Assembly (NCBI GenBank): GCA_964654745.1
Contig: CAZZKA010000001.1
Coordinates: 1 to 52,536, forward strand
Length of the DNA: 52,536 nt
Direction of reading: 5' to 3'
Source of the DNA: an uncultured Bordetella sp.
Lineage (GTDB): Bacteria; Pseudomonadota; Gammaproteobacteria; Burkholderiales; Burkholderiaceae_E
The position numbers and the translations under genes are program-made. Below are positions 1-24,377 of this stretch, one piece after another. Below the pieces are notes generated by a model. That model was not told the origin of the DNA and ran no database searches. It worked only from the letters and a program-made list of their open reading frames with translations. The first letter of the stretch is position 1. Each line of letters opens with the position of its first letter.

Positions 1-739
1 AAGGCGGTCGCGGTGACCGAACTCACCGTCACGCCCTGGGCAAAGCGGATCGAATAGCCCTGCGAGGTCACCCCGGCGCTGCTGCTGTCAAATGCAACCG
101 TCACCTTGCCGCGCCCGACAAGCGCCTCGAGCGCTTCCTGGATCGCGACAGTCTGGCGGTTTTTGTCGGCGATGTAGCGAATATCAGCGGTGGTGCGCGT
201 GCCGTCGGGCATCGCAAGCTGCAGCCGTAGCTTCGCGCCGGTCACCGTGCTGGCCTGGGGCGTCAACAGGAGGTAATGGCGCGAGACCGCCGCGGCGGTA
301 CCAAGGCTCGTGACGCTGATGCTGCCCCACTCATCCTTGTACGACGGATCGGCGGGCGGGGTCATGCCGAGGCCGGTAACAAGGCGGCCGTTGTAGGCGC
401 TACCAACCAGGGTGATGGAAAACCCCGCCGCTCGCGTCCCGCCCACGGAGACTGCACCCGCGCCGAGGAGTACGTTGAGCCCTCGCGTGAGTTCGGCCGC
501 AAAGGCAGCGTCGTTCAGTCCGGTCGAGCGGATCGTTTCGCTGCGCCCGCCATAGCTGAATACGTAGGCGCCCTCACGGAAGGCAAGACTGCCATCACTT
601 GCCGTACGTGAGGCCGTCAGACGGTAGACGGTCGAGGTCATCACCCCGCCCGCCTGCAGTTCGCTCACCACGCCCTCGGCCTGCGTCTGCGCGCGGCTGA
701 TCACTTCGGGCGGCACGATGCGCACCGGCGTCTGCTTGG
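1..739 (-). repeat. Array C of GNV-signature units (at least 2, continues past the window edge)
   Basis: Codon-checked: ...LNVLLGAGAVSVGGTRAAGFSITLVGSAYNGRLVTGLGMT... and ...VAIQEALEALVGRGKVTVAFDSSSSAGVTSQGYSIRFAQGVTV. Confidence 0.7.
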
Positions 740-3700
740 TGACGGCAAATTCACCGCTCAAATTGGCAAACCCGGCGATGCCGAGTTGCACCGCACCGGC
801 AAGCTGGAAATTGCCGGACCCGTCAAACCGGGTGGCGAGCGTACCCTCCAGGGTCAGTCCGTCGACTCCGGTAACCGCCGCCACCCCGCTCACGCTGCCC
901 GACTTGGTACCGTCGGCAGCTATCAGGATCTGGCCGTTACCGCTGGAAAGCGAGACCCTGGCTGTACCCGCAGCAACCGACGCATACGCATTGCGAGCGG
1001 AGATGGTCCAGCTCTGGCCCTGGGCTTCTTCATTGAGGACCAGATCGAATTCGCCACCGAGTTCGGCCGGGCCGAACCATAGACTGCCCTTGATCGCCAA
1101 CTTGAACACTTGCGCACCGTCGGCGAGCACCAGACTGCGCCCGGGTGCCAGAGTGAGCGTGGTGCTCTGGCGGTCATCGGCACCATTCCAGTCGATGACG
1201 ACACCGCCCGGCGCGAGCAACCCGGTACTGCCGAACTGGCGGTTGATCTCGAGCGACGCGCCGGTGATGTCAGCGCGCACGCCTGCGGCCAACTCGGCCG
1301 AGCCAACCTGTGCACGGGTGGCAAGCCAGCGGCGCGCCGTCTGGCCGGTCGAAACCAGCTCGGTGGCGATCACCACGCCTAGCTGGGTCTGCTGGAGCGC
1401 GGCGCCGACGGTCGAGTTGCCAAAGCGTGCGGCAAGGTTGGCGCCGCCAACCAGCAACTGGTTGACGCGGGCGCTGCTGCCATCGCTCAGCAGAACAGCC
1501 TGATCGGTGCGCGACTCGATGAACAGATCGCCCGAGGCCTGAACCACACCGGCCAGATCGACTGACATCCTGCCGCGCGCGCGCGTCTCGTTGTCGACGA
1601 GGTCAAGGCGGTAGGTTCCCCGTGCCGTTGCTACCTCATCGACGAGTGCACTGCCCCATCGGTTGACTGCGATCAGCAGGCTGTCAGCCTTCACATCCAG
1701 ACCGGGGACGCCCGCCACCGCGACATTGCCCTCGGCGACGGCAGCGTATTGCTTCGTCACGGTCGCCGTAGCGCCGCTGCCCGTCGTGGTGTGCCGCAGC
1801 ACCACCGCGCCTGTACCGCCACTCAGGGTGATGCTCGCCGAGCCAGCGCTCAGCGAACCGTTGGCCTGATCAACGCCGATTCGGATATCGGTGACAGTCG
1901 AGGCCTGACCGTTGACCGTCTTGGTCTGCGTCGTTGATACGAGCTTGAGCTGACCCGAGACCTGTACCGCGCCGGCCACATCGATCGAGCCCTGAAGGAT
2001 GGTGATTTCCTTGCGCTCGATCCCATCGCTGAAGGCAACCGTTCGATTGGGCGAAGTCAGCCCGGTTTTGACGCTCTGACTGACCGCGCGGCCAAGCGTG
2101 TTGATCTGAACGACAGCGTCGGCCTGCAGGCTTACCTGTCCCGAGAATCCGGACAGGCTTGCCTGACCGGACGCATAAAGGGCAAAGCCAGGCTTGGCAG
2201 CGACGACGCCAACCTGCGGAGGCGTATTGCGCGAAATGACGAGACCCAACTCGGCCTGGTTGATCACCACGCCCGCGGAGGCTGTGCCAACCGCGACGTT
2301 GACGCCGGATGCTCCGATCAGGAGATAGTTATCGGGCTCAGCGACCGCCTTGAGAAGCTGCAGCTCGACCGCGGGCAGCGCCTTGCCAGTGAGCGCGCCA
2401 GTCGCTACGAGGCGGAAGGTGCCGGGCGTGCCCGCCACTTCCTGCAGCGCGATGTTGTTGCGGCCAACGCCCGGCAGACTTTCGAGCGCGGTCTTGAGTT
2501 CAGCCTGCCAGGCCTGTGCGCTCGCGGCCGCGCGCACATCGATGGTGTGCACCCAATCGGAGCCGCCGGCTGGCCGAATGCGGATCGCGCTCGCGAGCTC
2601 CCCGGTATCCGAGAACCGAAGATCGATCGTGCGTACCGCTTGCACCGCAAGGGGCGCGACGTTTCGGCCCGCGAGCGCCCCCTGGAAGCGGATATCCCAT
2701 CCACCGCCCGCCAATTCCACCGCCACGTTGCCCGAGCCGATCGTCGAAAGCGCCTCGAGGGCTGAACGCAGCGCCGCCGCGGTGAGGCCCTCCGACTGCA
2801 GCACGGTAGTGAACCGGCCATTGAAGCCGAGCTGAAAAGCACCCGCAGCGGATACCTGGAGCCTTTGCACCTCGCTCGTGGTGCTGCCGGTAGCGGTCTG
2901 CGTCAACGAGGCAGCCGGTGCCTGCCGCGGCGTCACCGTCCCCTGGAGCGGCGCAAACTGCTGGCCTACCGCGGCCCCGCCGAGCGTGACCCGCCATTGG
3001 TTTGCCGCGACATCAAAGCTGGCGCTAGCGGTCGCACCCGTCGCCGAGAATGCTCTGCCATCCGCGGTTTTTGCGGCGAGGAGCGCGCTCACGAGCGCGG
3101 CGCCGCCGGAGGTGGTGTCGTTGAGCGTGGCAAAGCTGATCGGCGCGGTCGTGTACTGACCGGCCGCACCGGTGAGCCCGCTGCTCAGCACCGTCAGCGT
3201 CGCGGCCGGTGCGGTCTGTGCGTTCACCTCCCGGCTGATCGCCGCGATACTCTGGCCGAGAGCCGATCCGCCGAAGGCGATCTGCCAAAGCCCCTGAGCA
3301 TTGACCGTGACGGTCGCTGTGACACCGGTGCTGCCAAGGCTGGCCCCGGCGGTCGCTGTCGCGGCAAGGAGCGCCGACTGGAGCGCACTCGCGCTCGCCT
3401 GCATGCTGATGGCCGCGGTGCGGAAAGTCTGCCCGCCAACCTGCAGAGACAGCGTGAAGGTGCCGGCGATATCGGCTGGCCAACGGCTGAGCGTGTGTAC
3501 CGCCCCGGTCGCGGCTGCGGTCGAACCGCTCGCGCCAGTAAGGGCGTACTGCATCCCAGCCGTGACCCCGGTATTAGTCGCGCTCAACTGCCCCAGCGCG
3601 CGCACCCGTTCGGCCATGGTCCCGGTAAAGCTGATCTCGTAGGCCTGGTCGTAGCTCGGCGACCGAATCTGCCGGACGGTGATATCGGAGGACTGGTAGA

Positions 3701-6700
3701 CCTTCTGCGGCTGGCCCGCCACATTGGCGGTCAACAGCCGCGTGCTGTAGGTGGCCGTGCTGCCGGTGAGGGCCATCAGCGCATCGATGAGATGGCGACC
3801 CTGCGAATCCTGCAGGTTGACGAATTTGACGCTGGCGGACTTCGGACTGTTTGCGAAGCTAAGCGCAAAGCTGTCGGAGTTGGTGGTCGCGCCGCCTGCG
3901 GGAACCTGAATGCGCAGCGTGTAGGCGCTCGGGATCGAGCCCGACTGCGCCTGCTGGATGACTTCACTGCGGTCCGAGGCGGCTACGGCTGCCGCGGGGT
4001 CTGTCGGCGCGCGCATGAAGAGCCCCGTGCCGCCGGCTGCACTGTCGACGGCAACCGACTGCCCAGCCCAGCTGCCAGTGAAGCGAAGCTCAAAGCCGGC
4101 GCTGCGCGAACCACTCACGAGTACATTACCGGCGCCGAACAGCTGCTCAAACGCACTGCCCAGACGCTCGCGCAATACGGTGTCGGTCAGCGCACTGCCG
4201 CTCGCGCTCAACGAGCCCACGCTGACCGTGGTCCCGGCAAAGCTGAAAGCGTAGACGCCCTCCCGGAACCGGCCGCTCGCGCTGTCGTAGGCACCCAGTC
4301 TCAGACGCGTGTCGCTGCGCGCCTGGAAATCAAAGCCGTAGGTGATCGTCCCCTCGGTCCCGGCCGGCATAAGGTCAAGCGCATGGACCGCGCCGCTGGC
4401 GGTCGTTGCCTGCGCAATCAGGTAGTTGCTGCCCCAGTCGCTGCGTTGACTTGGGTCGGCTGGCAGCGTGACCGACAGGCCCTGGATCGCCTGACCCGAG
4501 AGGGTGCCCGCGAGCGTGATCGCAAAGCCGCCTTCTTTGGTCCCGGTGACGACAGCATTGCCAAACCCAAACAGACTTTGCGCAGCCGCCTGCAGTTTCT
4601 GCAACCACACCGCGTCCTGATCGGCTGCAAGGAGCCTGACCTGAGCGCTCGCCGATCCGTAAGCAAGGCTATAGGAACCCTCGCGCACCCGAAGACTCGA
4701 GCCGCTGCCTTCCGCAACGGCGAGCCGGAAGCTGCTCGAGCTGCGGACGCCGCCCTGCTGCGTTTCGGTGATGCTGGCGGTGACCCCCGCAGTCTGAGTC
4801 GCCGTCTGGCTAGCGGGCTGAGCGGTCTGCAGAGCATTCTGCGTGACCGCGAACTGCCCGTTGATGGAAGCAAAGCCCGCAATCGCTATGTCGGCCGCTC
4901 CGGCAAGCTCAAGATTGCCCTGGCTGTCAAAGCGCGTTGCGAAAGTTCCTGTGAGGGTGAGGTCGGAGACCCCGGTCACCGACGCGGTACCTGTGATCAC
5001 TCCGCTGCGCTGAGCCGCGCCGTAGGCGCCGCTTGCATCGTTCTTGCCCAGCCAGAGGTCGCCCGTGCCGTTGCTCAGCCCAACCCGCGCGCCATTAGCC
5101 TGCAAGCCGACGGAGACATTGGTTGCCCGGATGTGCCAGGCGCGATCGCCCTGGGCAGACTGGTCGAGCTCGATATTGAACTGGCCCGACATACTCGCCG
5201 GACCGAAGGCCATCGCACCGTCGACATCAAGCTTGAAAGTACGCTGGCCCTGCGCGAAGCTCAGACTCTGGTCGGGCGAAATCGCGATCGCCGTGCTGGC
5301 CGAATCGGCGGGCCCGTTCCAGTCGATCACCGACCGGGTGCCGGACAGTTCGAGCGCGCCGTTGACGAGTTCGGTATTGAGGAGCAGGCGTGCCGAGCGA
5401 ATATCGGCCAGTGCGTAACCCTGCACTGTGGCAGCACCGAGGAGCGCCTGCGCGCTGATCCAGCGACGCGTCCCCGCCCCACGTTCGGTGCTCAGCACGA
5501 CTGCGATGTCAAGATCCCGCAGGCTCGCGCCCACCGTGCTGTTGCCCAGACTGCCCGAGATACCTGCGCCGCCAAAGATCAGCTGATTGACCGAAACCGA
5601 ATTGCCATCGGTCAGCGTCACGGTAGCCGCGTTGGCGTCGGATCGGCTCTCGATGAACATATCACCGGAAACGCTCAGCGCACCGGCAACCTCGACGTTC
5701 ATCCGGCCGCGCACGCGCGTCTCGTTATCGAGAAGATTCATCGCGTAGTCGCCCGAGCCGGTCGCGACCACCTCGTTTTCGAGGGCGCGCCCCAGGCGGT
5801 TGTAGGCGATGCTGAGCTCCTGGGCATCCAGCGTCACACCGCTGATGCCGCTCAGGGCAAGATTGCCGCCGACCTGAAGGGCGTAGCGCGATGAAGCCGT
5901 CCCGCCGCTCGGCGTAATTTTTTCGATAAGGATCGCCCCGCTCGCCCCGGAGAGCGTCGCGCCGACGCCTCCCGGGGTGAGCTGTCCGCTGACCCCGGAG
6001 AGCCCGATGCGAAGCGTGCTGGTAGTAATGCCGCCCGTGGTGACGGTCTCGGAGCGAATGCCCATCGCGCCGCGCAACTGGCCGCCAAGCGCGCTGATGC
6101 TGACCGTCCCATCGCTGATCAGCAGCTCCTTGACCGCATTACCCGAAGCGAACTCGATCGCCAGCGACGCGCCGCCGACGGTGATCGAGCGCGAAACCGC
6201 TTCTCCGAGTGTGTTGACGCGAACGGCAGCCGTTGCGCTGAGCGACAGGTCGGCCAGGCCGCTCACCCCAGCCGTGCCGTTGGCGACTAGCGCGTATCCG
6301 GACTCGCCAAGGGCGTTGCGGGCGATGTAGAGGCCAAGCGAGCCGCCCGAGATCGTGACGCCGCCGAAATCCGCCTGGACGTTGCCCAGCCCGACCAGGA
6401 GCCTGGGATCGGACGAACTGTCTTTCTCGACCGAGAAACTGCCCGACAGGCTGCCGAATCCATCGACCGCCACGGACACATTGTTGCCGGACAGGCGGAG
6501 ATTGTTGGCGCTGAAACTCGCGCTCAGCGTGCCGGAAAAACTCAATCCCGCGAGCCCTGAAACCGACGCTGTACCGGTCATGGTGCCGGTCCGGTTGGCT
6601 CCGTTCAGGTAGAAGCTGCCGCTGCCGTTGGACAGGGCCACCGATGCGCCGCTCGCCGAGACGCCGACGCTGACGTTCTGTGCCTGAATGTCCCAGATAC

Positions 6701-9700
6701 GCTGACCGCTTGCCGCGTCCTTGTCGAGCACGATCTTGAAATCGCCCGACAGGCGGGTCGGTCCGAAGTCGAGCGCACCAGAGACCGGGATCTCCCATCG
6801 GCGATCGGCCATGTTGATGAGCGCCTGCTTGCCGCTGTCGATCGCGGACAACGCGATCGTCCGCGCCTGGGCACCAGACCAGTCGAGCGCTGCGCGCGAA
6901 TTGTCTTCGATGAAATTGCCCGCCGCATCCATCGCCTGATTGAGGCGTAACTGGGCTGTCCTAAGATCGGCGAGCGCGTTGCCTAGCACATTGATCGAAC
7001 CGAGGTTGCCAAGCGCGGTAAGCCAGCGCTGACCAGCATCGGCGGCATTCTGCGAGAACACGAGCGCGAGATCGACGCCGCCAAGCTGGGCGAGCGTGCT
7101 CGACCCGGATGCGTAAACGAGCGAGAGCCCCGTGCCGCCCAACACAGTCTGGTTGAGCGATACGGTGCCGCCTCCCTGCAGGGCCTGACTGACCGCATTG
7201 CGTGCCTCGACGAATACCTCACCCGAAACGGTCAGGCCCGCCACTGACGCGGTCGCTACGCCGCTCACACGGGTCTCGTTGTCGAGCAGATCGACGGTGT
7301 AGCTGCCCGCGCCGGTATTGACCGCGAGCCCGCGCACGGCGCTGCCCAGACGGTTGTAGGCGACCCGCATCTGCGAGGCGGTGAGGCTCACCCCGGAGCC
7401 GGCGAGACTCACATTGCCCTCGAGCTGAACCGCATGCGTACTTGCCGCCGAGCCGATCTTTTTGAGGAGGATCGCGCCCGCTCCTGAGCTCAGCTGAGCG
7501 GTAAGGGCGCCCAGCGAAAGAGAACCACTCACGCCAGACAGACCGATCCGCATGTCGTTGACGGTCTGGCCATTGACGACCGATGCGCTCGAGGTGATCG
7601 CCAAGGCTCCGCTCACAGTGCCGAGTCCGGTGACGCTGAGGCTGCCGCTGGAGATCGACACTTCCTGGATTCTCGATCGGTCGGCGAAGCTGATGCTCAC
7701 CCCGCCGATCTGGGCGTTGACCGTCTGGCCAAGCGTGTTGATGCGCACCGACGCCGTCGCGGTCAAGCTGACACCTGAGAAACCATTGAGACTCGCGCTG
7801 CCATCGGCCACAAGCGCGTAGCCTGCTCCCGTCTCAGACGTGCCTGCAATGTAGAGGCCGAGGTTGGCGTTACTTACTGTCACGCCTGCGCCACCCGCGC
7901 CAAACGAGGCGGAGACCCCGGTTGCGCCGATCAGAATCTGACCGCCCGCGCTCTTGCTTGCCGTCAGGTTGCCGCTCAACGATCCGAACCCGGCGACATT
8001 TATCGCCATTGAACTGCCACTGAGGGTGAGCCCCGTTCCGCTGAACGAGGCAGAGAAGTTGCCGCTCGCCGATACGCCGGCGAGCCCCTCCACGACAGCC
8101 GTCCCGGAGATCGATCCGCTTCGGGTATTGCCGGGACCGAGCACCAGCGTGCCACTCGCGCCTTCGATGCCGACGTACGCGCCGCCGCTGCGAAAGCCCA
8201 CGCTTGCACCGGCTGCGTCGACAGTCCAGACCTTGTCTGCACCGCTCTGATCAAGCGTGATCTTGAAATCACCGGAAATCAGCGCGCCGCCAATGTCGAT
8301 CGATCCGCTGACAGGGATCTCAAATCTCGGCAGCGATTGCGCAAGGACCAGGGATTTGGTCGCTGACAGGGAAATGGTCTGCGGGTTGGTCGCCCAGTTG
8401 ATGACCGAACGCGCGGCGTCGGTGGCATGATTGGCCGCGCTGATCAACGCCCCCGCTGCGTCATAAGCACGATTGATGTGCATTTGCGCCGACTGGAGGT
8501 CGCTCAGCGTGTACCCCATGACGCTGGCCGAACTGAGCGCGGTGCTGCCGGTGATCCAGCGCCGCGCGTTGCTTGTGACGTCCTCGGTACTCACGATCGC
8601 TGCGATGTCGATGCCGCCCAGGCTCGCGATCTGGCTCGCGCCCGAACGCAGTACAGCACCGACCCCCGCGCCGCTGACGACCAGCTGCTTGGTCTGGATC
8701 TGGCTGCCGTTGGTCAGCGTGACCGTCTGCGCAAGACGGCTTTCGATCGACAGCGCGCCGCTCAGCTCCAGCGTGTCAGCGAGGGTTACGGTCGCCTGGC
8801 CATTGAGCCGGGTCTCGCCGTCCAGCATGGAGACCGCGTAGTCGCTGCTGGGGGTTGCCACCGTCGCGGCAAGCGCTTCACCCCAACGGCTGTACGATAC
8901 GCGCAGCGCCGCGTTGAGGTTGAGCCCCGGCGCGGTGAGGGCAACATTGCCATCGGCCTGAAGCGCGACGCGGCGCGTGATCGCACCGGCCGCGTCGACC
9001 TGATGGCGCAGCATCAGTGCGCCCGCCGCTCCGGTGAGCGAGGCCTGCGCGCCGCCAAGAGACAGCGTGCCGCCGGCGTTTTCAAAGCCGATCGATACGT
9101 CGGTCGTTACGACGCCGTTGCTGATCCGGTTGGTAGTGACCAGCTTGAGGTCGCCCTGCACATGCCCTAGGCCGGTGACATCAATACGGCCGTTGGTGAT
9201 CACAAGCTCTTTGCGCGCAAGCCCGTCAGCAAAAGCAAGCGTAGACGATGTGGTGAGGCCGGTGGGGATAGAAAGGTTTACAGCCTCGCCCAACGCATTG
9301 ACTCGCAACTGCGCAGCCGCCGAGAGGGTCACCGAGCCACTGAAGCCAGAAAGCGCGGCGTTGCCGGAGACCTGCAGCGCGTAGCCATCGGTACCATCGG
9401 CTCGCTTGGTGACAAGAAGCGCCAGTTCGCCGTTTTGAACCGCTGCGCCGACGCCGCCGCTGCCCACCTGCGCGGTGACACCGTTCGCACCGATCAGAAG
9501 CCGCTCCGCGCTCACCTGTGCCACGCGTGAGACCGTTGCCTTGAGCTGCGGCATGGGCGCACCGGCGAGCCCGTTGACAAAGCTCACATCGAAGGTCAGC
9601 GGTTGGCCCGCGCGCGCTTGCACCGATACATGATCCGCGCTCAGGTCGGGCAGCGACCCTATCAGCAGCTTGAGGGTCTGCGCGATCGCCTCGTCGCCAA

Positions 9701-12700
9701 GCCCGGCGATGCTTAGTTCGGCCGATACGTCGCTACGGTCGGCGAGCTGCACCGACACTGCCGTCGGTCGAAGGCCTCCGGTCATCGCAAGCGACAGCGT
9801 CTGCACCGGGAGTACCACCAGCGAAGGGACATCACGGGCGGCAAGGCCGCCCTGGTACGCCACGGTGTACTGTCCTGCAGTCCCGGTCGCCGCGACGGCG
9901 AGGTTATCGCCGCTGGAAATCGCCGGCAGTCCCGCCAACGCATCGCGCAGGCTCTGCGCGGTGAGCGTCGCCGCATCGAGGATATCGGTGGTCTGGTTCA
10001 GTCCATCGAAGGCAAGCCTGAAACGACCTGCCGGCACGGGAAGGGACAGCGTCTGAGTCTCACTGCTGGTGCTCGCCTGCCGGAAAACCGCAAGGCCAGC
10101 CTCCGGCGCAGCCACCGCACTGGTGATCCGTCCCAACATGACGTCAAGGTCAAGATCGCTCGCCGACCCGCCAAACGCCACGCGCCAGACCTTGGCACCG
10201 TCGGACTGGGTGAGCAGGTCTACGGCGAGCTCGACGCCGCGCTGCGCGAGACTTTGCCCATCGGGTGCGCGCGCGGCGAGCAGCGCAGACTTGACCTGCT
10301 GCGCCGACGCCGAAAACGAGAGCGGGCCGGTGGTATGGGTCTTGCCCTGCATCCAGAGGCTGAGCTCGAAGGTACCGACAACACGTTCGTCGTAGAGGCG
10401 AACCGTCTGCACCGCACCGATCGCCGCGCTGCCGTCGCGTGAGGTTGAGACAGATGGGCTAAGTCCCGCACTCGCCGCGCCCACCTGCAGCGCAGGAAGG
10501 TTTTGCGCCGCCAGCGTGCCCGCAAAACTTATCTGGAAGCGCGAGCTCGAAAGCGTTGAGGCGGGATCGTAGGCAACGCTCACATTGCCGGTACCGAGCG
10601 CGGTCTGCAGCGCAGTTTCGATCGCCCTTGCCTGCTTTATCACCGAAAACCCTGGTGATCCCTGCCGAACGGTCTTGAGCGCAAGCTTGATGTCCGAGCT
10701 GGAGCTGAAGCCCTGCAGCGCGGATACGTCCAGGCCCGCGCGCGCCCCCCGGAAATCGATGACGTAGTCGACGCTGTTGTGACCGGTGTAGCCCTTCTGG
10801 TAGCTCACGCTCACGTTACCCGCGCCAACCACCGCCTCGAGCGCCTGCTGCAGCTGCGCGGTGTGATAGGTCGGGTCCGCGGAAAAGCGGACCTTGCTCG
10901 TCGTACGACCGTCGAGGGACAACCAGAACTGACCCGACGCGCGGTTGGCAGCCGTGATGGTGAGCACCTGGCGCTCGTTAACCGCGCTGTCGCTGCCGTC
11001 GACGACAATCGGCGCGGTAACCGAGCCGGCCAGCGACAGCGTGAAACTGCCTCCCGCACCCGAAGCGCGGTTGAGAACCAGCTGCTGGACTTCGCTGCGC
11101 GCGATCTGCATCGCAGCGGTTTCTTCGATGACGCCCCAATCGTTTTTATCGGCGGGATCCGGCGGCTGGATCAGCCACAGCCCGGGTTGGTCGCCTGCCG
11201 AGGCGAGCGCGATCGGCTGGCCAGCAAGCGAGCCGATGAATTCGGCGTCAAATCCTCCGGTGCGCGTTCCCTTGACCTGAACATTGCCGGCACCCACGAC
11301 CGCGAGCCGCTCGAAGGCGGCCTGGATCCTTGCTGCGAGTACCTCATCGGTGACCGGCCGGCCGGCTGCGGTGTCGGCATCGAGCGTGCTGAAGGTCTGG
11401 CTCTGCCCGCCCCAGCTGATGGTGTAGAGGCCCTCGCGAGTGAACTTACCGGTCTGATCCGACACGTTGAGGCGAACGACTGCTGTGGTGATCTCACCCC
11501 CGGCGCGGCTCGTCCCTACCGTCGCGCCCGCGCCTACCGTGCTGCTCAGACTCTCGAAAACCGGTACCGACTGAATGGCTGGCTCGCGGATAACCGAGAA
11601 CGAACCCGCAAGCTGACCGACCCCGGCGATGCCGAGCTCCATCGCACCTGCGAGCTTTAGCCGATCGTTGGCAAAGCTTGCGCTCAGACTGCCGCTGGCC
11701 GAGACCCCGTTGATACCCGTGACGGATCCATCGCCAGACAGGGTGCCAGTCACGCCCGACGAAGAGATTCGCAGATCACCGGTGACGTTTTCGATGCTCG
11801 CGCGCGCGCCATTGGCCTGCAGCGAAACGCTCGCATTGGTGGCCAGCACCTGCCACGCCGGGACCGTCTGGCCGTTCTCGACGACGCTACCCGCAACCAC
11901 ATGGAAAGTTCCGCTGATCTGCGCGCCGCCGATCGCAAGCGTGCCCTGCACCGCCGTGGCGAGCCGCGAGACCTGGGTATCGAGGACAAGGGCCGCCGTA
12001 TCGCTAATGACCAACGGCAGGCCGGCACTGTTGGCACCAGGCCGCCAGTTGATGACTTTTTCGTCGCCCCCCGCGTAAAGGGCGCCATCACTCGCGAGCT
12101 GCCGGTTGATGTCGAGCATGCCGATATCGATGCTCGCCCGTGCGACTCCAGTCACCTCGGCCGAGCCGACGGTCGCGCTCGTGCTGAGCCAGCGTCGCTG
12201 CGCACCGGTGGTTTCGGTGCTGAGCGCCATGGCGAGATTGACATTACCCAACGCCAGGCTCGCGCCCGCGCGTACGCTTGCCGACAACCCCGCGCCACCG
12301 AGGAGCAGCAGGTCGGCCGTCGCGGTGCTGCCGTCGCTCAGGGTGAGCGTCTGGTTGCGGCGCGACTCGAGGAAAATGTCTCCCTCAGCGCTCAACCAGT
12401 CACCGATGCCCACAGCGGCATAGCCGCGTACCCGGGTCTCGTTATCGATCTGGTCCATCAACACCCAGCCGCCAGGCGTGGCGATACTGCGTTCGACAGC
12501 CGCGCCGCTGCGGTTGATACCGACCTGCAGTCGCTGGGCGCTCAGGCTCAGTCCCGCAACGCCGGTGAGCGCCGCTTCGCCCTCGGCCTGGATCGCATAG
12601 CGCAGAACGGGCTGGTTGCTGACGGTCTCTGAGAACAGAAGGAGGGCGCCGCTTCCTCCCGACAGCGAAACAGCAGGGCCACCGAGGCTGAGCGAACCCG

Positions 12701-15680
12701 ACAGCCCATCGATACCGACCTCCAGTTGTTGCCGGGTGGTCGAGCCGATAGCCACCTGCCTGCTGTCGATGCGGAGACTGCCGGCAAGCGAGCCCCAGGA
12801 CCCGAGTTGCAACGTCGCATTGGCGATCGATACCGAGCTCACCGGCCGCTCATCGGCAAATGCCATCGCAACCGTGCTGCCATCGGCGAGGGTCAGGGTT
12901 TCATTGACGCTTGCGCCCAGGCGATTGATTTCGACGCGCGCTCGCTGCGCTGACAAGGAAAACTGATTACCCGCCGTGCTGAGCGCGGCCCCGCCCTCAG
13001 CGACGAGCGCGAACCCTGCCTGACCCACCGCATCGGTACGGAGGATGAGGCCAAGCCTCGCATCGGTCACTCTGACCTGGGCACCGGACGATCCGATCAA
13101 CGCGTTGAGCCCGGTCCCGGCGATGATCAGGCGGTCACCGGCAGGGGTGGTTTGGCGGCTGATGCTGAGGTTGCCGCTGATCTCGCCGAAGCCCGCCACC
13201 GCGAGGGTGGCACCCGCCAAGCTGACCGAATAGGTCCCGGCGGCCCCGTCGAAGACGACCCGGCCCGCTGTAGCGGTAAGGGTCAGGCCCGCCACGCCAC
13301 CGATTTCGATCTGGCCGCTCAGCTCGCCGCTGCGGCGGCGCTCGGCATCGATGCGCAGTTGCCCACTTGCCTGGTTGAGACGCACGAAGGCCGGGCCTGC
13401 AGCAAGCAGCCACTGGGCATTGGCGATGCTCAGCTGCCAGGCGTTGGCGAGCCGCTCATAGGCGATCGTGAACTGGCCCGAGAGGCGGTTGTCGCCCAAC
13501 ACGAGCGCGCCCTGAACAGGCAGGCTGAGGACATCGCCCACCTGATCGAGCACAAACTGGCGGCCGGAAGCGAGCGTAAAGCGGCGCGCCTCAGCCCAAT
13601 CGATGGTCACGCCCTGAAGGTTCTGCGCCACCGTAATCGCGCGGTTGATCGACCACTGGGCGGATTCGAGATTGTCGAGGGCATAGCCAGCAACCACCAT
13701 GGCCTTGGCCGCGCCGCGGCTCGAAAGCCAGCTGTTGCCGTCCTTATCCCGGGCATACACCAGAGCGAATTCGGCCTCGGTGGCGGAAACTGCGCCTGAA
13801 CTGGAAGCGCCAGGAATGAGCGCGACCAGACCGCGCGATCCCGAAAGCGCGTACTCGGTGAGTTGGATCGTCTGCCCGTTGGAGAGCAGGCGCACCCGCT
13901 TTTGCGCATCGAGCGCGAGATCACCCTCAAGCCGGCCCAGGCCCTGCACCTGAATCGCAAAACGGCCGCTCATCTGCAGCGCGTTGGCCGGCAGGTCGAC
14001 CAGCAGGTCGCCACCACCGGGGAGCTTGAGCGAGCGCAGCAGCGCCTGATCGTGTTCGTTGTAGCTCAGCCTCACCCGCTGCCCGGTCAGCTGAACCGCA
14101 CTGTCCAGGGCGACCGACACATCGAGCAGACCCTGAACCGCGGTCCGACTGGTGGCCTCGCCCAGCCCCGTAGTCGGACTTGAGGTGCGGAAAACGACGC
14201 CCAGCGCGCCATTCTGTCCCGCGAGGGTCAGCAGGCCGAGGCTGAGTTCGGCTGCGGTCAGTTGGACACCGACCAGCAGCTCCTGGGTGGTGACGCCCTC
14301 CGCGGCCTCGGTCTGGCTCGCAAAGGTCACGCCCCCTTTTACCCAGCCCAGGCTGCCCAGCTGTAACGTCGCGTCACTCGCCTCGAACCGTCCGCCCGGA
14401 CTGTCGCTCGAGGCGAGATAGGACACCGATCCCTGCATCGAGACGCCGGCGCCTGCCTGCAGCGTCGCAGCGCCGCTCACCTGCAGGCTGAAGCGCGCGG
14501 GCGCCGAGGAAATCGACAGCGCGCCGTCGGAGAGGAGCAGCGCCGCACCCCGGGCCGGGTCGCCGGCGCGCATCTGCAGACCCTGCGCCGACACAGAGAG
14601 GACGCCCTGCGCCTGATCGTAGCCGAGCGTGAAATTGCCGGCGATCGACGGCCCGCTTCCGGCCGAAAGCGAGCCCTGCCCGGTCAGGCTCGCCTGCAGG
14701 GTCCCCGGACCCATCACCAGTTTGCCGGCGAGATTGGTCAGCGCTCCGTTCAAACCCGGCAGAGACCACTGCGCATTGACGCTCTGGGCAGTCAGCGTGG
14801 TCTCGACCTGGTTACCGGCCAGCAGGCCGACGGCGACCTGCCAGGTACCGGATAGCCTCAGGCCCGATATGTCGAGCGAAGCATCGAGCGATACAGCTGC
14901 CTGCGAAACCTGGTTGGCAACTTGGGTGAGCCATTGGTCCAGGGCCTGCTGCGCTTGTGGTATGGAAGCAACATTTAGCTGTTGTAAACCTGGCAATTGC
15001 GTTGCAACCAGCCGCAGACGGTTTGCCTCGTAGAGCGGCTTGAGAAAAATTCCGTTGCCCGCATAGAGCCCGGTGTAGCTCGTGAAAACGCCCTGACGCG
15101 ACGACCAGGTCATCACATCAAACACCTGGCCGGCGGTCGGTCTGAAATCGTTTATGAAATCGAGCGACAGGGTCCCAGCCAGCTTGGCCTCGCCCGATAC
15201 AGCGACTCGATCGTAGCCATCGAGTACCTGCGGCTGGCCTGCGCCGGGTGTGAGGCCGCCGATTTCGATCTTGAGTTTGCCGCTGGCCTGTTGCTCGAAA
15301 GACTGGACCGTCAGGATCCCTGGCGACTCACCCGGTGCGACCACTCCGCCGTTATTGAGCGGACCATCCCACACACCCGTGCCGAGCAGCGTGTAGCCCT
15401 GATTTAACGCAAGCGACTGGCCTTGCTCAGAGGGAGAATTGAGGTTGAGGAGCGATCCGGAGGGCGATTGCAACTGCAGCGGGTCGCCGGTTGCGGCGCC
15501 GGGCCACTGGGTCTGCGACGCGCTCGAACTGTCATCGGCGAGCACCTGCAAGGGCGCCGATTCGGCCGCTCGCACCTCGGGCTGATCGGAGCCGCTGACA
15601 GGCAAATCCGCCGCCAGCAGGATCCGCTGCTCAAGGACTTCCACCCGAACCGCAGGCAAAGCTTTTTTGCGTTTGGCCAA
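1..15680 (-). CDS. Giant repetitive secreted/surface protein, LEPR-XLL-like N-terminus, C-terminally truncated by the window edge (>=5,226 codons)
   Basis: I scanned every 60-nt line in the minus frame whose codon first bases fall at coordinates = 2 mod 3. No in-frame stop (plus-strand CTA/TCA/TTA) occurs from 15686 down to 1. The first upstream in-frame stop is TGA at 15689-15687. The proposed start is TTG at 15680-15678, with AAGGGGG (reverse complement of 15691-15697) 10 nt upstream. Hand translation is coherent at both ends: N-terminus MAKRKKALPAVRVEVLEQRILLAADLPVSGSDQPEV, window edge ...LVGRGKVTVAFDSSSSAGVTSQGYSIRFAQGVTVSSVTATA. The ORF track omits it because it has no stop inside the window. 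No track ORF inside the gene body is in this frame. Confidence 0.9.
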   Translation of the reverse strand, partial: MAKRKKALPAVRVEVLEQRILLAADLPVSGSDQPEVRAAESAPLQVLADDSSSASQTQWPGAATGDPLQLQSPSGSLLNLNSPSEQGQSLALNQGYTLLGTGVWDGPLNNGGVVAPGESPGILTVQSFEQQASGKLKIEIGGLTPGAGQPQVLDGYDRVAVSGEAKLAGTLSLDFINDFRPTAGQVFDVMTWSSRQGVFTSYTGLYAGNGIFLKPLYEANRLRLVATQLPGLQQLNVASIPQAQQALDQWLTQVANQVSQAAVSLDASLDISGLRLSGTWQVAVGLLAGNQVETTLTAQSVNAQWSLPGLNGALTNLAGKLVMGPGTLQASLTGQGSLSAGSGPSIAGNFTLGYDQAQGVLSVSAQGLQMRAGDPARGAALLLSDGALSISSAPARFSLQVSGAATLQAGAGVSMQGSVSYLASSDSPGGRFEASDATLQLGSLGWVKGGVTFASQTEAAEGVTTQELLVGVQLTAAELSLGLLTLAGQNGALGVVFRTSSPTTGLGEATSRTAVQGLLDVSVALDSAVQLTGQRVRLSYNEHDQALLRSLKLPGGGDLLVDLPANALQMSGRFAIQVQGLGRLEGDLALDAQKRVRLLSNGQTIQLTEYALSGSRGLVALIPGASSSGAVSATEAEFALVYARDKDGNSWLSSRGAAKAMVVAGYALDNLESAQWSINRAITVAQNLQGVTIDWAEARRFTLASGRQFVLDQVGDVLSLPVQGALVLGDNRLSGQFTIAYERLANAWQLSIANAQWLLAAGPAFVRLNQASGQLRIDAERRRSGELSGQIEIGGVAGLTLTATAGRVVFDGAAGTYSVSLAGATLAVAGFGEISGNLSISRQTTPAGDRLIIAGTGLNALIGSSGAQVRVTDARLGLILRTDAVGQAGFALVAEGGAALSTAGNQFSLSAQRARVEINRLGASVNETLTLADGSTVAMAFADERPVSSVSIANATLQLGSWGSLAGSLRIDSRQVAIGSTTRQQLEVGIDGLSGSLSLGGPAVSLSGGSGALLLFSETVSNQPVLRYAIQAEGEAALTGVAGLSLSAQRLQVGINRSGAAVERSIATPGGWVLMDQIDNETRVRGYAAVGIGDWLSAEGDIFLESRRNQTLTLSDGSTATADLLLLGGAGLSASVRAGASLALGNVNLAMALSTETTGAQRRWLSTSATVGSAEVTGVARASIDIGMLDINRQLASDGALYAGGDEKVINWRPGANSAGLPLVISDTAALVLDTQVSRLATAVQGTLAIGGAQISGTFHVVAGSVVENGQTVPAWQVLATNASVSLQANGARASIENVTGDLRISSSGVTGTLSGDGSVTGINGVSASGSLSASFANDRLKLAGAMELGIAGVGQLAGSFSVIREPAIQSVPVFESLSSTVGAGATVGTSRAGGEITTAVVRLNVSDQTGKFTREGLYTISWGGQSQTFSTLDADTAAGRPVTDEVLAARIQAAFERLAVVGAGNVQVKGTRTGGFDAEFIGSLAGQPIALASAGDQPGLWLIQPPDPADKNDWGVIEETAAMQIARSEVQQLVLNRASGAGGSFTLSLAGSVTAPIVVDGSDSAVNERQVLTITAANRASGQFWLSLDGRTTSKVRFSADPTYHTAQLQQALEAVVGAGNVSVSYQKGYTGHNSVDYVIDFRGARAGLDVSALQGFSSSSDIKLALKTVRQGSPGFSVIKQARAIETALQTALGTGNVSVAYDPASTLSSSRFQISFAGTLAAQNLPALQVGAASAGLSPSVSTSRDGSAAIGAVQTVRLYDERVVGTFELSLWMQGKTHTTGPLSFSASAQQVKSALLAARAPDGQSLAQRGVELAVDLLTQSDGAKVWRVAFGGSASDLDLDVMLGRITSAVAAPEAGLAVFRQASTSSETQTLSLPVPAGRFRLAFDGLNQTTDILDAATLTAQSLRDALAGLPAISSGDNLAVAATGTAGQYTVAYQGGLAARDVPSLVVLPVQTLSLAMTGGLRPTAVSVQLADRSDVSAELSIAGLGDEAIAQTLKLLIGSLPDLSADHVSVQARAGQPLTFDVSFVNGLAGAPMPQLKATVSRVAQVSAERLLIGANGVTAQVGSGGVGAAVQNGELALLVTKRADGTDGYALQVSGNAALSGFSGSVTLSAAAQLRVNALGEAVNLSIPTGLTTSSTLAFADGLARKELVITNGRIDVTGLGHVQGDLKLVTTNRISNGVVTTDVSIGFENAGGTLSLGGAQASLTGAAGALMLRHQVDAAGAITRRVALQADGNVALTAPGLNLNAALRVSYSRWGEALAATVATPSSDYAVSMLDGETRLNGQATVTLADTLELSGALSIESRLAQTVTLTNGSQIQTKQLVVSGAGVGAVLRSGASQIASLGGIDIAAIVSTEDVTSNARRWITGSTALSSASVMGYTLSDLQSAQMHINRAYDAAGALISAANHATDAARSVINWATNPQTISLSATKSLVLAQSLPRFEIPVSGSIDIGGALISGDFKITLDQSGADKVWTVDAAGASVGFRSGGAYVGIEGASGTLVLGPGNTRSGSISGTAVVEGLAGVSASGNFSASFSGTGLTLSGSSMAINVAGFGSLSGNLTASKSAGGQILIGATGVSASFGAGGAGVTVSNANLGLYIAGTSETGAGYALVADGSASLNGFSGVSLTATASVRINTLGQTVNAQIGGVSISFADRSRIQEVSISSGSLSVTGLGTVSGALAITSSASVVNGQTVNDMRIGLSGVSGSLSLGALTAQLSSGAGAILLKKIGSAASTHAVQLEGNVSLAGSGVSLTASQMRVAYNRLGSAVRGLAVNTGAGSYTVDLLDNETRVSGVATASVAGLTVSGEVFVEARNAVSQALQGGGTVSLNQTVLGGTGLSLVYASGSSTLAQLGGVDLALVFSQNAADAGQRWLTALGNLGSINVLGNALADLRTAQLRLNQAMDAAGNFIEDNSRAALDWSGAQARTIALSAIDSGKQALINMADRRWEIPVSGALDFGPTRLSGDFKIVLDKDAASGQRIWDIQAQNVSVGVSASGASVALSNGSGSFYLNGANRTGTMTGTASVSGLAGLSFSGTLSASFSANNLRLSGNNVSVAVDGFGSLSGSFSVEKDSSSDPRLLVGLGNVQADFGGVTISGGSLGLYIARNALGESGYALVANGTAGVSGLADLSLSATAAVRVNTLGEAVSRSITVGGASLAIEFASGNAVKELLISDGTVSISALGGQLRGAMGIRSETVTTGGITTSTLRIGLSGVSGQLTPGGVGATLSGASGAILIEKITPSGGTASSRYALQVGGNLALSGISGVTLDAQELSIAYNRLGRALENEVVATGSGDYAMNLLDNETRVRGRMNVEVAGALSVSGDMFIESRSDANAATVTLTDGNSVSVNQLIFGGAGISGSLGNSTVGASLRDLDIAVVLSTERGAGTRRWISAQALLGAATVQGYALADIRSARLLLNTELVNGALELSGTRSVIDWNGPADSASTAIAISPDQSLSFAQGQRTFKLDVDGAMAFGPASMSGQFNIELDQSAQGDRAWHIRATNVSVGLQANGARVGLSNGTGDLWLGKNDASGAYGAAQRSGVITGTASVTGVSDLTLTGTFATRFDSQGNLELAGAADIAIAGFASINGQFAVTQNALQTAQPASQTATQTAGVTASITETQQGGVRSSSSFRLAVAEGSGSSLRVREGSYSLAYGSASAQVRLLAADQDAVWLQKLQAAAQSLFGFGNAVVTGTKEGGFAITLAGTLSGQAIQGLSVTLPADPSQRSDWGSNYLIAQATTASGAVHALDLMPAGTEGTITYGFDFQARSDTRLRLGAYDSASGRFREGVYAFSFAGTTVSVGSLSASGSALTDTVLRERLGSAFEQLFGAGNVLVSGSRSAGFELRFTGSWAGQSVAVDSAAGGTGLFMRAPTDPAAAVAASDRSEVIQQAQSGSIPSAYTLRIQVPAGGATTNSDSFALSFANSPKSASVKFVNLQDSQGRHLIDALMALTGSTATYSTRLLTANVAGQPQKVYQSSDITVRQIRSPSYDQAYEISFTGTMAERVRALGQLSATNTGVTAGMQYALTGASGSTAAATGAVHTLSRWPADIAGTFTLSLQVGGQTFRTAAISMQASASALQSALLAATATAGASLGSTGVTATVTVNAQGLWQIAFGGSALGQSIAAISREVNAQTAPAATLTVLSSGLTGAAGQYTTAPISFATLNDTTSGGAALVSALLAAKTADGRAFSATGATASASFDVAANQWRVTLGGAAVGQQFAPLQGTVTPRQAPAASLTQTATGSTTSEVQRLQVSAAGAFQLGFNGRFTTVLQSEGLTAAALRSALEALSTIGSGNVAVELAGGGWDIRFQGALAGRNVAPLAVQAVRTIDLRFSDTGELASAIRIRPAGGSDWVHTIDVRAAASAQAWQAELKTALESLPGVGRNNIALQEVAGTPGTFRLVATGALTGKALPAVELQLLKAVAEPDNYLLIGASGVNVAVGTASAGVVINQAELGLVISRNTPPQVGVVAAKPGFALYASGQASLSGFSGQVSLQADAVVQINTLGRAVSQSVKTGLTSPNRTVAFSDGIERKEITILQGSIDVAGAVQVSGQLKLVSTTQTKTVNGQASTVTDIRIGVDQANGSLSAGSASITLSGGTGAVVLRHTTTGSGATATVTKQYAAVAEGNVAVAGVPGLDVKADSLLIAVNRWGSALVDEVATARGTYRLDLVDNETRARGRMSVDLAGVVQASGDLFIESRTDQAVLLSDGSSARVNQLLVGGANLAARFGNSTVGAALQQTQLGVVIATELVSTGQTARRWLATRAQVGSAELAAGVRADITGASLEINRQFGSTGLLAPGGVVIDWNGADDRQSTTLTLAPGRSLVLADGAQVFKLAIKGSLWFGPAELGGEFDLVLNEEAQGQSWTISARNAYASVAAGTARVSLSSGNGQILIAADGTKSGSVSGVAAVTGVDGLTLEGTLATRFDGSGNFQLAGAVQLGIAGFANLSGEFAVTKQTPVRIVPPEVISRAQTQAEGVVSELQAGGVMTSTVYRLTASRTASDGSLAFREGAYVFSYGGRSETIRSTGLNDAAFAAELTRGLNVLLGAGAVSVGGTRAAGFSITLVGSAYNGRLVTGLGMTPPADPSYKDEWGSISVTSLGTAAAVSRHYLLLTPQASTVTGAKLRLQLAMPDGTRTTADIRYIADKNRQTVAIQEALEALVGRGKVTVAFDSSSAGVTSQGYSIRFAQGVTVSSVTATA
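740..2333 (-). repeat. Super-repeat module M5 (~531 aa)
   Basis: Begins DNYLLIGASGVNVAVG. Core is TYRLDLVDNETRARGRMSVDLAGVVQASGDLFIESRTDQAVLLSDGSSARVNQLLVGGAN (DNETR at 1581-1595). Also contains ARRWLAT, IDW, GEFDLVLN. Ends GIAGFANLSGEFAVT. Confidence 0.85.
2334..4841 (-). repeat. Array B of about seven ~100-aa GNV-signature units
   Basis: Codon-checked unit at about 2640-2880: TSEVQRLQVSAAGAFQLGFNGRFTTVLQSEGLTAAALRSALEALSTIGSGNVAVELAGGGWDIRFQGALAGRNVAPLAVQ. Other units end GAGNVLVSGSRSAGFELRFTGSWAGQSVAV, LWQIAFGGSALGQSIAAI, QWRVTLGGAAVGQQFAPL, GTFRLVATGALTGKALPAV. Confidence 0.8.
4842..6410 (-). repeat. Super-repeat module M4 (~523 aa)
   Basis: Begins DPRLLVGLGNVQADFGG. Core is AYNRLGRALENEVVATGSGDYAMNLLDNETRVRGRMNVEVAGALSVSGDMFIESRS (DNETR at 5715-5729). 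Also contains TRRWISA, IDW, GQFNIELD. Ends AGFASINGQFAVT. Confidence 0.85.
6411..7950 (-). repeat. Super-repeat module M3 (~513 aa)
   Basis: Begins GGQILIGATGVSASFG. Codon-checked core is NTGAGSYTVDLLDNETRVSGVATASVAGLTVSGEVFVEAR (DNETR at 7269-7283). Also contains GQRWLTA, LDW, GDFKIVLD. Ends DGFGSLSGSFSV. Confidence 0.85.
7951..9510 (-). repeat. Super-repeat module M2 (~520 aa)
   Basis: Begins ERLLIGANGVTAQVGSGG. Core is DYAVSMLDGETRLNGQATVTLADTLELSGALSIESRLAQTVTLTNGS (DGETR at 8808-8822). Also contains ARRWITG, INW, GDFKITLD. Ends VAGFGSLSGNLTAS. Confidence 0.8.
9511..11589 (-). repeat. Array A of about six ~100-aa GNV-signature units
   Basis: Codon-checked example at 10741-10980: NERQVLTITAANRASGQFWLSLDGRTTSKVRFSADPTYHTAQLQQALEAVVGAGNVSVSY...VIDFRGARAGLDVSAL. 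Other units end GNVQVKGTRTGGFDAEFIGSLAGQPIAL, GTGNVSVAYD...FQISFAGTLAAQNLPAL, YTVAYQGGLAARDVPSL, FDVSFVNGLAGAPMPQL. Confidence 0.75.
11590..13140 (-). repeat. Super-repeat module M1 (~517 aa)
   Basis: Begins GDRLIIAGTGLNALIGSSGAQVRV. Core is WVLMDQIDNETRVRGYAAVGIGDWLSAEGDIFLESRRNQTLTLSDGS (DNETR at 12432-12446). Also contains QRRWLS and INW. Ends GIAGVGQLAGSFSV. Confidence 0.8.
13141..14290 (-). repeat. Degenerate, shortened copy (M0) of the ~520-aa super-repeat
   Basis: It keeps the C-terminal-half landmarks: GYALDNLESAQWSINR, IDW, LSGQFTIAY...W, AVAGFGEISGNLSISR. It lacks a clean DNETR/FIESR core. Confidence 0.5.
14291..15680 (-). other. N-terminal head region of the giant protein (leader plus SPGILTV-type segment)
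   Basis: Translated segment: LEQRILLAAD ... GTGVWDGPLNNGGVVAPGESPGILTVQSFEQQASGKLKIEIGGLTPGAGQPQVLDGYDRVAVSGEAKLAGTLSLDFINDFRPTAGQVFDVMTWSS. The PGxSPGxLTV ... G.L.IE.GG ... D.v.V.G.a.LaGtL pattern is common in heads or tails of very large beta-solenoid surface proteins. Confidence 0.6.
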
Positions 15681-16104
15681 AACCTGTCAGCCCCCTTGAA
15701 GCTCCGCTGCGACCGGTCGTTGCGATCGACATTCGCCCAGATACGAGATGCCTGGAACCAGTGCAGCCAGCCCGTTCGATCTGCCTCAGAGCCCGGCGTT
15801 GCTCCGTCTTGCGCGGATTTGACGCCAGTAAACAAACCAGTGTAGCCAAGTCAAGCCGCAAACGGGTGATCGATTTTGGTGGCGTTACGTATCGATTCGG
15901 AAAACGTCATCCCGTCTGCACCCCCAAGGGCCGGCCAGCGGGTTGAGAACAGAGCCTTCGGAGGGGGGCAGCCTCTGGGTTCGGCCCGGAGCGATCGGAA
16001 GATCGATCCAGAACGTATTGCCTAGGTCGTTTGATGGATCAAAGCCTGCCGCTCCGCTGCGCTGGCTCAAGCTCCATACCGCCGACGCGCGCGACAATCG
16101 AACG
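15681..16104. promoter_or_regulatory. Divergent intergenic/promoter region between the giant gene and the P-type ATPase
   Basis: About 420 nt with no convincing coding frame. It contains ATCGAT hexamers at 15869, 15891 and 16002, and an exact 11-mer GCTCCGCTGCG at 15701-15711 and 16051-16061. Confidence 0.5.
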
Positions 16105-24275: not shown

Positions 24276-24377
24276 GGCCGTCTCCTCTTGATGGTCGTCG
24301 GAATATGAGGCACTCCGATCGTCGGGGCAAACCGCCAATCTACCTCGGTCTGCAGCACTCTGCATCCGGCAAGCCGC

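Follow-up and report, generated by a model that had tools for sequence, protein, structure and literature searches.

Repeat units and modules of a giant LEPR-XLL protein

We analysed a 52,536-nucleotide stretch of DNA from an uncultured Bordetella sp. (assembly GCA_964654745.1, contig CAZZKA010000001.1, positions 1 to 52,536), hereafter the window, which opens with a giant gene for a repetitive protein. Positions 15686..3 on the minus strand form a single stop-free open reading frame (ORF) of 5228 codons (15.7 kb, ~65% GC), which is truncated at its C-terminal end by the window start, such that the first 5228 residues are encoded; its start codon is likely the TTG at 15680. The protein is built from small repeat units gathered in three arrays and from modules of ~520 residues, and profile similarity identifies the unit as a homologue of the C-terminal extension (CTE) domain found in virion proteins of mycobacteriophage Bxb1. 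At its N-terminus the protein carries a motif known from other very large proteins:

15600..15647, minus strand: LEPR-XLL motif VEVLEQRILLAADL, residues 14-29, NCBIfam NF012209 (LEPR-8K), 18.3 bits against a cutoff of 17

The NF012209 score exceeds the curated cutoff by a small margin, and a homologous protein, P0002, shares both the motif and the corresponding NCBI name. By this motif the giant protein belongs to the LEPR-XLL domain-containing class. The adjoining N-terminal head (residues 95-235, window ~14980-15400, minus strand) follows the pattern GESPGILTVQSF...GKLKIEIGG...YDRVAVSGEAKLAGTLSLDF...GQVFDVMTW, shows no relationship to either units or modules and drew no match from Pfam or NCBIfam. 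Opposite the giant gene, plus-strand ORFs encode up to 1009 amino acids (2865-5894, 2350-2835 and 8427-9170); we take these to be shadow frames, produced by a coding region of 65% GC, rather than genes.

The original prediction, made from the sequence alone, proposed at least 15 copies of a ~100-residue unit of one family, in arrays of about six, about seven and at least two units. Its example peptide, FQLGFNGRF...NVAPL, lies where it was placed (residues 4284-4346, window 2649-2837, minus strand), and a profile seeded with this peptide and iterated within the giant ORF recovered 13 units at domain i-E (independent E-value) 1e-14 to 1e-24 and two weaker ones. We then worked with two alignments, one of the 15 window units (alignment A1) and one of 77 sequences (alignment A2). 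With the 77-sequence profile, the giant ORF yields 15 full units together with a single N-terminal half unit. The resulting arrays (6.5, 7 and at least 2 units) agree with those predicted. Profile and alignment evidence also bears out that the units form one homologous family. As a control for chance similarity, a hidden Markov model (HMM) profile was built from 63 units of other proteins only and applied at a domain E-value (E) <= 0.01. This independent profile gave 15 hits in the giant ORF, none in the reversed sequence and none in 20 shuffles; because it is silent on these controls, the units are real and far above chance. The arrays and units, in the order of the protein and all on the minus strand, are as follows:

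9507-11456, minus: Array A, residues 1411-2060, 6 units and a half unit
11178..11456, minus: unit A1 (REG subtype, F-T-R-E-G-L-Y-T-I-S-W-G-G), residues 1411-1503, E 1.8e-20, independent HMM 1.8e-14
10977..11096, minus: half unit A1h EVQQLVLNRASGAGGSFTLSLAGSVTAPIVVDGS, residues 1531-1570, N-terminal half, HMM positions 1-38, E 6e-6
10695..10979, minus: unit A2, residues 1570-1664, E 5.9e-22
10458..10700, minus: unit A3, residues 1663-1743, E 1.1e-13
10110..10415, minus: unit A4, residues 1758-1859, E 4.5e-13, best paralogue B4
9783..10064, minus: unit A5, residues 1875-1968, E 9.6e-21, best paralogue B6
9507..9806, minus: unit A6, residues 1961-2060, E 1.9e-12, best paralogue B7
2340-4691, minus: Array B, residues 3666-4449, 7 units
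4443..4691, minus: unit B1 (REG subtype), residues 3666-3748, E 4.4e-15
4023..4271, minus: unit B2 (REG subtype), residues 3806-3888, E 1.9e-15
3561..3869, minus: unit B3 (most divergent, with a long insertion), residues ~3940-4042
3198..3500, minus: unit B4, residues 4063-4163, E 2.6e-13
2910..3173, minus: unit B5, residues 4172-4259, E 8.5e-5, missed by the independent HMM, closest paralogue B4
2625..2876, minus: unit B6 (the unit of the example peptide), residues 4271-4354, E 5.8e-27, modelled with high confidence (see below)
2340..2609, minus: unit B7, residues ~4360-4449, E 3.1e-12
9-590, minus: Array C, residues 5033-5226, 2 units, cut by the window edge
348..590, minus: unit C1 (REG subtype), residues 5033-5113, E 9.9e-12
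9..248, minus: unit C2, residues 5147-5226, E 5.6e-11, the array running on past the window

In unit B3 the C-terminal half alone scores (E 0.0045; independent HMM 0.0024), and the unit is aligned over its full length in the 15-unit alignment. Mean column identity across the 15 aligned units is 27%, with the consensus Q-x-L ... G-x-x-x-L-x-x-x-G-x-x-x-T ... A-x-x-L-x-x-A-L-x-x-L ... G-x-G-N-V-x-V ... I-x-F-x-G-x-x-A-G. In the 77-sequence alignment no residue is fully invariant, and A42, L43, V56 and F67 are nearly so. The signature quoted in the original prediction therefore holds as a consensus, being present in relaxed form in 14-15 of the 16 units (half unit included), and not as an invariant motif: strict G-x-G-N-V-x-V occurs in 5/16 and strict F-x-G-x-L-A-G in 2/16. 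The spacing of ~100-140 residues counts linkers too; the folded domain is shorter, at ~85-95 residues, and profile matches cover 80-100. Five to seven of these domains follow one another in a string, some neighbouring units abutting directly and others being joined by linkers of 15-70 residues. The half unit A1h is directly followed by a complete unit. Because the same half unit is kept at the same place in two homologous loci described below (L001 and L002), comparison of these sequences marks it as kept from long ago, as opposed to the product of a recent deletion.

Similarity of the unit to the CTE domain of Bxb1

When the 77-sequence profile was compared with the Protein Data Bank (PDB), it matched the Bxb1 tail-tip cage protein gp23 at E 7.3e-48, in several tandem copies, as well as the major capsid protein gp14 (residues 312-378, E 2.8e-11) and the tail-tube protein gp19 (residues 201-241, E 4.8e-4). 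The profile of the 15 window units alone reached gp23 at E 1.3e-10 and the capsid protein at E 7.6e-5. By this profile similarity the unit is a homologue of the CTE domain of gp14, gp19 and gp23, for which solved structures are available (PDB 9d93, 9d94, 9d9w and 9d9x).

Structure prediction agrees with this assignment. The AlphaFold2 (AF2) model of unit B6 has a mean predicted local distance difference test score (pLDDT) of 92.4 and a predicted template modelling score (pTM) of 0.80, and its elements run in the order strand, strand, helix, strand hairpin, terminal strand. The model thereby gives a high-confidence prediction of an alpha/beta domain of ~90 residues that folds autonomously. In a Foldseek search of the PDB with this model, Bxb1 capsid, tail-tube and gp23 chains made up all of the top 7 and 10 of the top 13 matches, with query-normalised template modelling (TM) scores of 0.46-0.63 and a probability of 1.00; a protein of phage Patience was also matched. 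The unit is accordingly modelled as sharing its predicted fold with the Bxb1 CTE. In BFVD, the best matches of the B6 model were tail proteins, major and minor, from phages of Microbacterium, Gordonia and Mycobacterium (E down to 7.5e-6, TM up to 0.79, identity up to 40%), and PHROGs gave weak minor and major tail protein matches to the unit.

In Bxb1, the CTEs carried by the capsid protein and the tail-tube protein have a length of ~90 residues and are 47% identical to each other, and close relatives lack them (PMC8704799). They are external to the shell, immunodominant and removable with viability kept, and they have been assigned no function (PMC8704799). [quoted passage not shown] The family consensus drew no match from phage genomes, probably owing to the low-complexity filter. 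A search of phage genomes with a Bxb1 CTE fragment matched 635 records, almost all from phages of Mycobacterium or Gordonia, in which the matches sit in major tail, major capsid, tail sheath and minor tail proteins. RefSeq labels Bxb1 gp14 (L052 3158-4351, NC_002656.1) a 'major tail protein'; the note on the same entry calls it a putative major capsid subunit and the PDB a major capsid protein, so the RefSeq label looks like an annotation slip.

Curated domain libraries do not cover the unit. Searches of the arrays against Pfam-A (2025) and NCBIfam (release 20) gave no unit match, the LEPR-XLL motif being the sole hit in the protein, and 77 single units searched against Pfam gave scattered sub-threshold hits only, with no recurrent family and no immunoglobulin (Ig) or bacterial Ig-like (BIg) family among the hits to arrays or units. 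The CTE regions of gp14, gp19 and gp23 are likewise uncovered by Pfam; DUF5114 scored 16.7 bits there, under its cutoff of 27. In ten other unit-bearing proteins Pfam gave only weak hits, to the small alpha/beta domains Secretin_N and FeS_assembly_P, and these were not taken as homology.

Modules and duplication of module-plus-array blocks

Six modules of ~520 residues, one of them partial, share 35-45% pairwise identity and alternate with the arrays in the order head, M0-M1, array A, M2-M3-M4, array B, M5 and array C. This two-component alternation had been predicted and is real. The modules lie as follows:

13152..14531, minus: module M0 (partial or divergent), residues 386-845, module HMM E 1.2e-53, profile positions 44-517
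11583..13130, minus: module M1, residues 853-1368, module HMM, full length
7950..9500, minus: module M2, residues 2063-2579, module HMM
6420..7937, minus: module M3, residues 2584-3089, module HMM
4836..6401, minus: module M4, residues 3096-3617, module HMM
729..2324, minus: module M5, residues 4455-4986, module HMM, all-beta in its AF2 model with pLDDT 80

The AF2 model of M5 together with the first unit of array C (pLDDT 80) contains ~30 long antiparallel strands, with the unit folding separately and a 30-residue segment of pLDDT <50 between the two. The modules are thus predicted to be long antiparallel beta-meanders. No match to the module was found among PDB sequences, and Foldseek against the PDB returned only TM ~0.12, reflecting a local strand-meander likeness to TonB-dependent barrels and ApoB; the module is assigned to no family.

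Comparison between arrays revealed that the unit subtypes recur in the same order. The best cross-array matches pair A1 with B1, B2 and C1, A2 with C2, A4 with B4 (B5 being weaker), A5 with B6 and A6 with B7, and every array opens with a REG-subtype unit (F-R/T-R-E-G-x-Y...) followed by a P-x-D-P...D/E-W-G linker. Because the subtypes are colinear between arrays, the sequences indicate that duplication acted on whole blocks of module plus array, once divergence of the units into subtypes had taken place, and that the arrays did not arise by separate single-unit amplification. In full, the linker reads P-(A/P)-D-P-x-x-(K/R)-x-(D/E)-W-G and follows A1, B1 and C1 at window positions 11100-11170, 4390-4440 and 300-350 (minus strand); the REG linker motif also occurs in P0002, P0011, P0034, P0054 and P0107, all unit-bearing proteins.

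Homologous loci

The architecture recurs in metagenome-assembled genomes (MAGs) of other Burkholderiales. Of two homologous loci, L001, from an uncultured Polaromonas, is 75% identical and L002 is 68% identical; their frames are open for 3925 and 7324 codons, respectively, and both show the order module, 6.5 units, three modules, 7 units, module and then more units. The two-component architecture is also kept in a more distant relative, L004, and in P0002, a Magnetococcales-labelled protein with the same module spacing that is the closest full-architecture relative. The array matching C has five units in both L002 and L004, and in L002 it is followed by a seventh module. Beyond its last module, L002 continues with ~2300 non-repetitive residues ending in RTX calcium-binding repeats (PF00353, 47.3 bits). 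In L004 the frame runs >3400 residues past the RTX block, so RTX is not C-terminal there, and this post-RTX part is made up of repeats of beta-helix-like character that Pfam does not match. A C-type-lectin motif suspected by eye in L004 was dropped when Pfam found nothing.

A single frame is open across the entire fetched stretch of both loci, 21,974 nt (7324 codons) in L002 and 21,299 nt (7099 codons) in L004, and genes of this type are probably well over 25 kb. Because these frames continue beyond the RTX stretch or to the very ends of the fetched DNA, the complete giant protein of the window probably has well >8000 residues. RTX repeats are also present in P0136, a complete LEPR-XLL unit-bearing protein of 7638 residues. 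Downstream of the P0136 gene, in a Steroidobacteraceae MAG (L003 24946-31302), lie four genes, encoding a DUF3467 protein, a 631-residue protein with GAF and barrel-sandwich-hybrid (HlyD-like) domains, a 714-residue protein with a weak PqqD hit and a 653-residue shortened SecA-like protein (SecA_DEAD and SecA_PP_bind). This set might be a dedicated export apparatus for LEPR-XLL giants. A search for homologous proteins had a low yield, namely a 98%-identical fragment labelled Betaproteobacteria, which is the nearest fragment in the database, a Rhodoferax fragment and short unnamed proteins.

Distribution of the unit and the module

To place the unit more widely, the 15-unit profile was run exhaustively against a library of 1.84 billion representative proteins (clusters at 50% identity). 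The scan returned 5780 unit-bearing proteins at E <= 1e-3, a set that shrinks to 1567 at E <= 1e-10 and to 206 at E <= 1e-30; a single protein has up to 37 matched unit stretches. Among the best 150 of the 5780, 78 have at least 2000 and 22 at least 5000 residues, while the N-terminal LExRxLL motif is present in 18 and RTX-like nonapeptides in 19. Named examples come from Planctomycetota, Verrucomicrobiota and Pseudomonadota MAGs and are annotated as hypothetical, LEPR-XLL, RTX-like or 'autotransporter-associated beta strand'. Judged by these profile matches, the unit is a widespread domain for which Pfam and NCBIfam hold no curated model.

The original prediction also asked whether the unit always co-occurs with the ~520-residue module. 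It does not: the module is present in 19 of the 150 best unit-bearing proteins, in about nine of them at near-full length. A sub-repeat of ~130 residues, corresponding to profile positions ~230-355 of the module, is found in tandem in the giant proteins P0072, P0073, P0093 and P0106, with 8 copies in P0106; this segment of the module may be mobile as a repeat in its own right.

Genomic context

Genes for transporters and metabolic enzymes fill the remaining 37 kb of the window, their products including a P-type ATPase, TctC-family receptors, ABC and TRAP transporters, a Rieske oxygenase and a histidine kinase. No phage genes and no secretion genes are found among these neighbours of the giant gene (the 37 kb upstream flank within the window), and the context is that of an ordinary chromosome. 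Four TctC ('Bug') periplasmic receptor genes lie within 32 kb (18820-19779, plus; 23268-24365, minus; 48417-49394, plus; 50154-51185, plus). Such a number of TctC genes is typical of Comamonadaceae and Bordetella-type Betaproteobacteria and agrees with the Burkholderiales origin to which the homologous loci point; the bacterium is taken to be Comamonadaceae-like.

Possible role of the units and alternative explanations

We favour, as a fairly likely reading, that the units extend or decorate a giant secreted fibre or adhesin. The protein would be exported by a type I-like route, which we propose because homologues carry RTX calcium-binding repeats further downstream, and would form a long surface fibre or adhesin. 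In such a fibre, the stiffer beta modules would be separated by the unit arrays, which as semi-flexible bead chains would serve for extension and surface decoration, a role like that of the Ig-like extenders of RTX adhesins or of Hoc on the T4 capsid, and might add weak multivalent binding. The low-confidence 30-residue linker between M5 and the adjacent unit is counted as support for the behaviour of the units as independent beads. Several points weigh against this proposal. The extender or decoration role is drawn by analogy with a phage domain that itself has no assigned function, and the Foldseek E-values against the PDB are only ~1e-2, the statistical weight of the CTE relationship being carried by the sequence profile. 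Pfam finds no RTX repeats in the window part of the protein, there are no secretion genes in the window, and the C-terminus and the downstream flank lie beyond it; export and surface location are extrapolated from other loci, namely L002, with 68% identity across the query stretch, and relatives that are more distant. The description of the module as stiff is a reading of a pLDDT-80 model of a region with no structural or sequence match. Finally, the distinct unit subtypes kept across homologous loci could mean that the units have specific partners and are not generic spacers.

In the main alternative account, which we regard as possible though unlikely, the units are primarily ligand-binding, for example to glycans or the cell envelope, and the arrays serve multivalent adhesion. 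It would explain the display of the domain on the phage capsid, tail tube and tail tip, and it is in keeping with the exposed virion surfaces on which the CTE is found, including the Bxb1 tail-tip cage, with its recruitment into major tail, capsid, sheath and minor tail proteins across the 635 actinophage records, and with the retention of each unit subtype across homologous loci. However, Bxb1 is viable without its capsid and tail-tube CTEs and no binding function has been reported for them (PMC8704799), the near-invariant A42, L43, V56 and F67 are apolar and suggest a fold core over a binding site, and Pfam gave no lectin or carbohydrate-binding module (CBM) family match to the arrays or the 77 units. 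Binding and extension are not mutually exclusive, and as no ligand of the phage domain is known, the present data do not tell the two apart. The view of the original prediction, that the unit is a new domain without relatives in an undescribed architecture, has on its side that Pfam-A and NCBIfam models match neither arrays nor single units, so that the hit to an existing domain model which the prediction named as its refutation did not literally occur, and that the Bxb1 CTE regions also fall outside Pfam. Yet the unit is significantly similar in profile to three virion proteins of Bxb1 whose structures have been solved, the predicted-structure matches agree, and it occurs in at least 5780 representative proteins, while NCBIfam recognises the protein as one of a named class, LEPR-XLL (NF012209). 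We hold this view to be very improbable. As a whole, the observation in the original prediction is confirmed and its interpretation is partly supported. Scarcely credible, lastly, is an origin of the repeats as an artefact of composition in a high-GC frame rich in Ala/Gly/Thr/Val, or a view of the region as a non-functional or phage-derived remnant instead of a cellular gene. In favour of this, the sequence has low complexity and a GC content of 65%, the opposite strand carries long shadow ORFs, and the closest characterised relatives are phage proteins. Against it, the reversed and shuffled controls gave zero hits, the frame is stop-free over 15.7 kb, MAGs of other Burkholderiales keep the architecture at 68-75% identity, AF2 models the single unit with confidence, and the neighbours are ordinary chromosomal genes with no phage genes among them.

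We also put forward, tentatively, a broader reading. The CTE-like unit may represent a large uncurated extracellular domain superfamily, shared by actinobacteriophage virions and by LEPR-XLL and RTX giants of Planctomycetota, Verrucomicrobiota and Pseudomonadota, with a common adhesive role towards envelope or matrix glycans and with exchange between cells and phages. If this were true, the cellular arrays would give a handle on what the immunodominant extensions of Bxb1 do, and thousands of 'hypothetical' giants would gain a template from the phage structures.

Giant repetitive surface proteins are common and poorly annotated. By the homology described here, a building block known only as a dispensable mycobacteriophage 'extension' is a widespread cellular domain. 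A curated model of the unit would annotate thousands of hypothetical proteins and would link phage decoration domains with bacterial surface fibres, as was done earlier for Ig-like domains. The ~520-residue beta-meander module is a second uncharacterised building block.

Comparison with known systems

The closest counterpart of the unit is the Bxb1 CTE. The two share a length of ~90 residues, the predicted fold and a consensus consisting of an N-E-V-Q-x-L strand, G-x-F-x-L-x-F-x-G-x-T-T, an A-A-x-V-Q-x-A-L-E-x-L helix, G-x-G-N-V-x-V and F-x-G-x-L-A-G, and in the phage the domain occupies an exposed surface site and occurs in tandem copies in gp23. In contrast to the phage domain, the unit described here belongs to a cellular protein of a Gram-negative bacterium and not to an actinophage virion protein, and it is present in at least 15 internal, arrayed copies of colinear subtypes as opposed to one C-terminal copy. 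The placement of the window units is thus unlike the C-terminal virion placement of the CTE; this is a difference of context that leaves the domain homology unaffected, and gp23 also has internal tandem copies.

With respect to T4 Hoc and Ig-like capsid decorations, the likeness lies in small surface-displayed domains that are common to phage virions and cellular surface proteins. Such Ig-like decorations are non-essential and are thought to mediate weak adherence. The Ig beta-sandwich of Hoc differs from the alpha/beta unit, however, so that the parallel is an analogy only.

At the level of the whole protein, the LEPR-XLL giants (NF012209) share the N-terminal LExRxLL motif and a size of several thousand residues, but that family is defined by its N-terminal motif only, and curated libraries contain no model for the unit or the module. 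The giant type I-secreted RTX adhesins, of the LapA, MpIBP, SiiE and BapA type, resemble the protein in being very long and repetitive, with tandem small domains as an extender, and the homologue L002 has RTX nonapeptides downstream. Unlike the Ig-like (BIg) domains of those adhesins, the units are predicted to be alpha/beta and CTE-like, and the N-terminus is of the LEPR-XLL kind and not a LapA-type retention module. Taken together, these comparisons place the giant protein not as a new kind of biological system but as a new domain composition within the familiar giant secreted repeat proteins.

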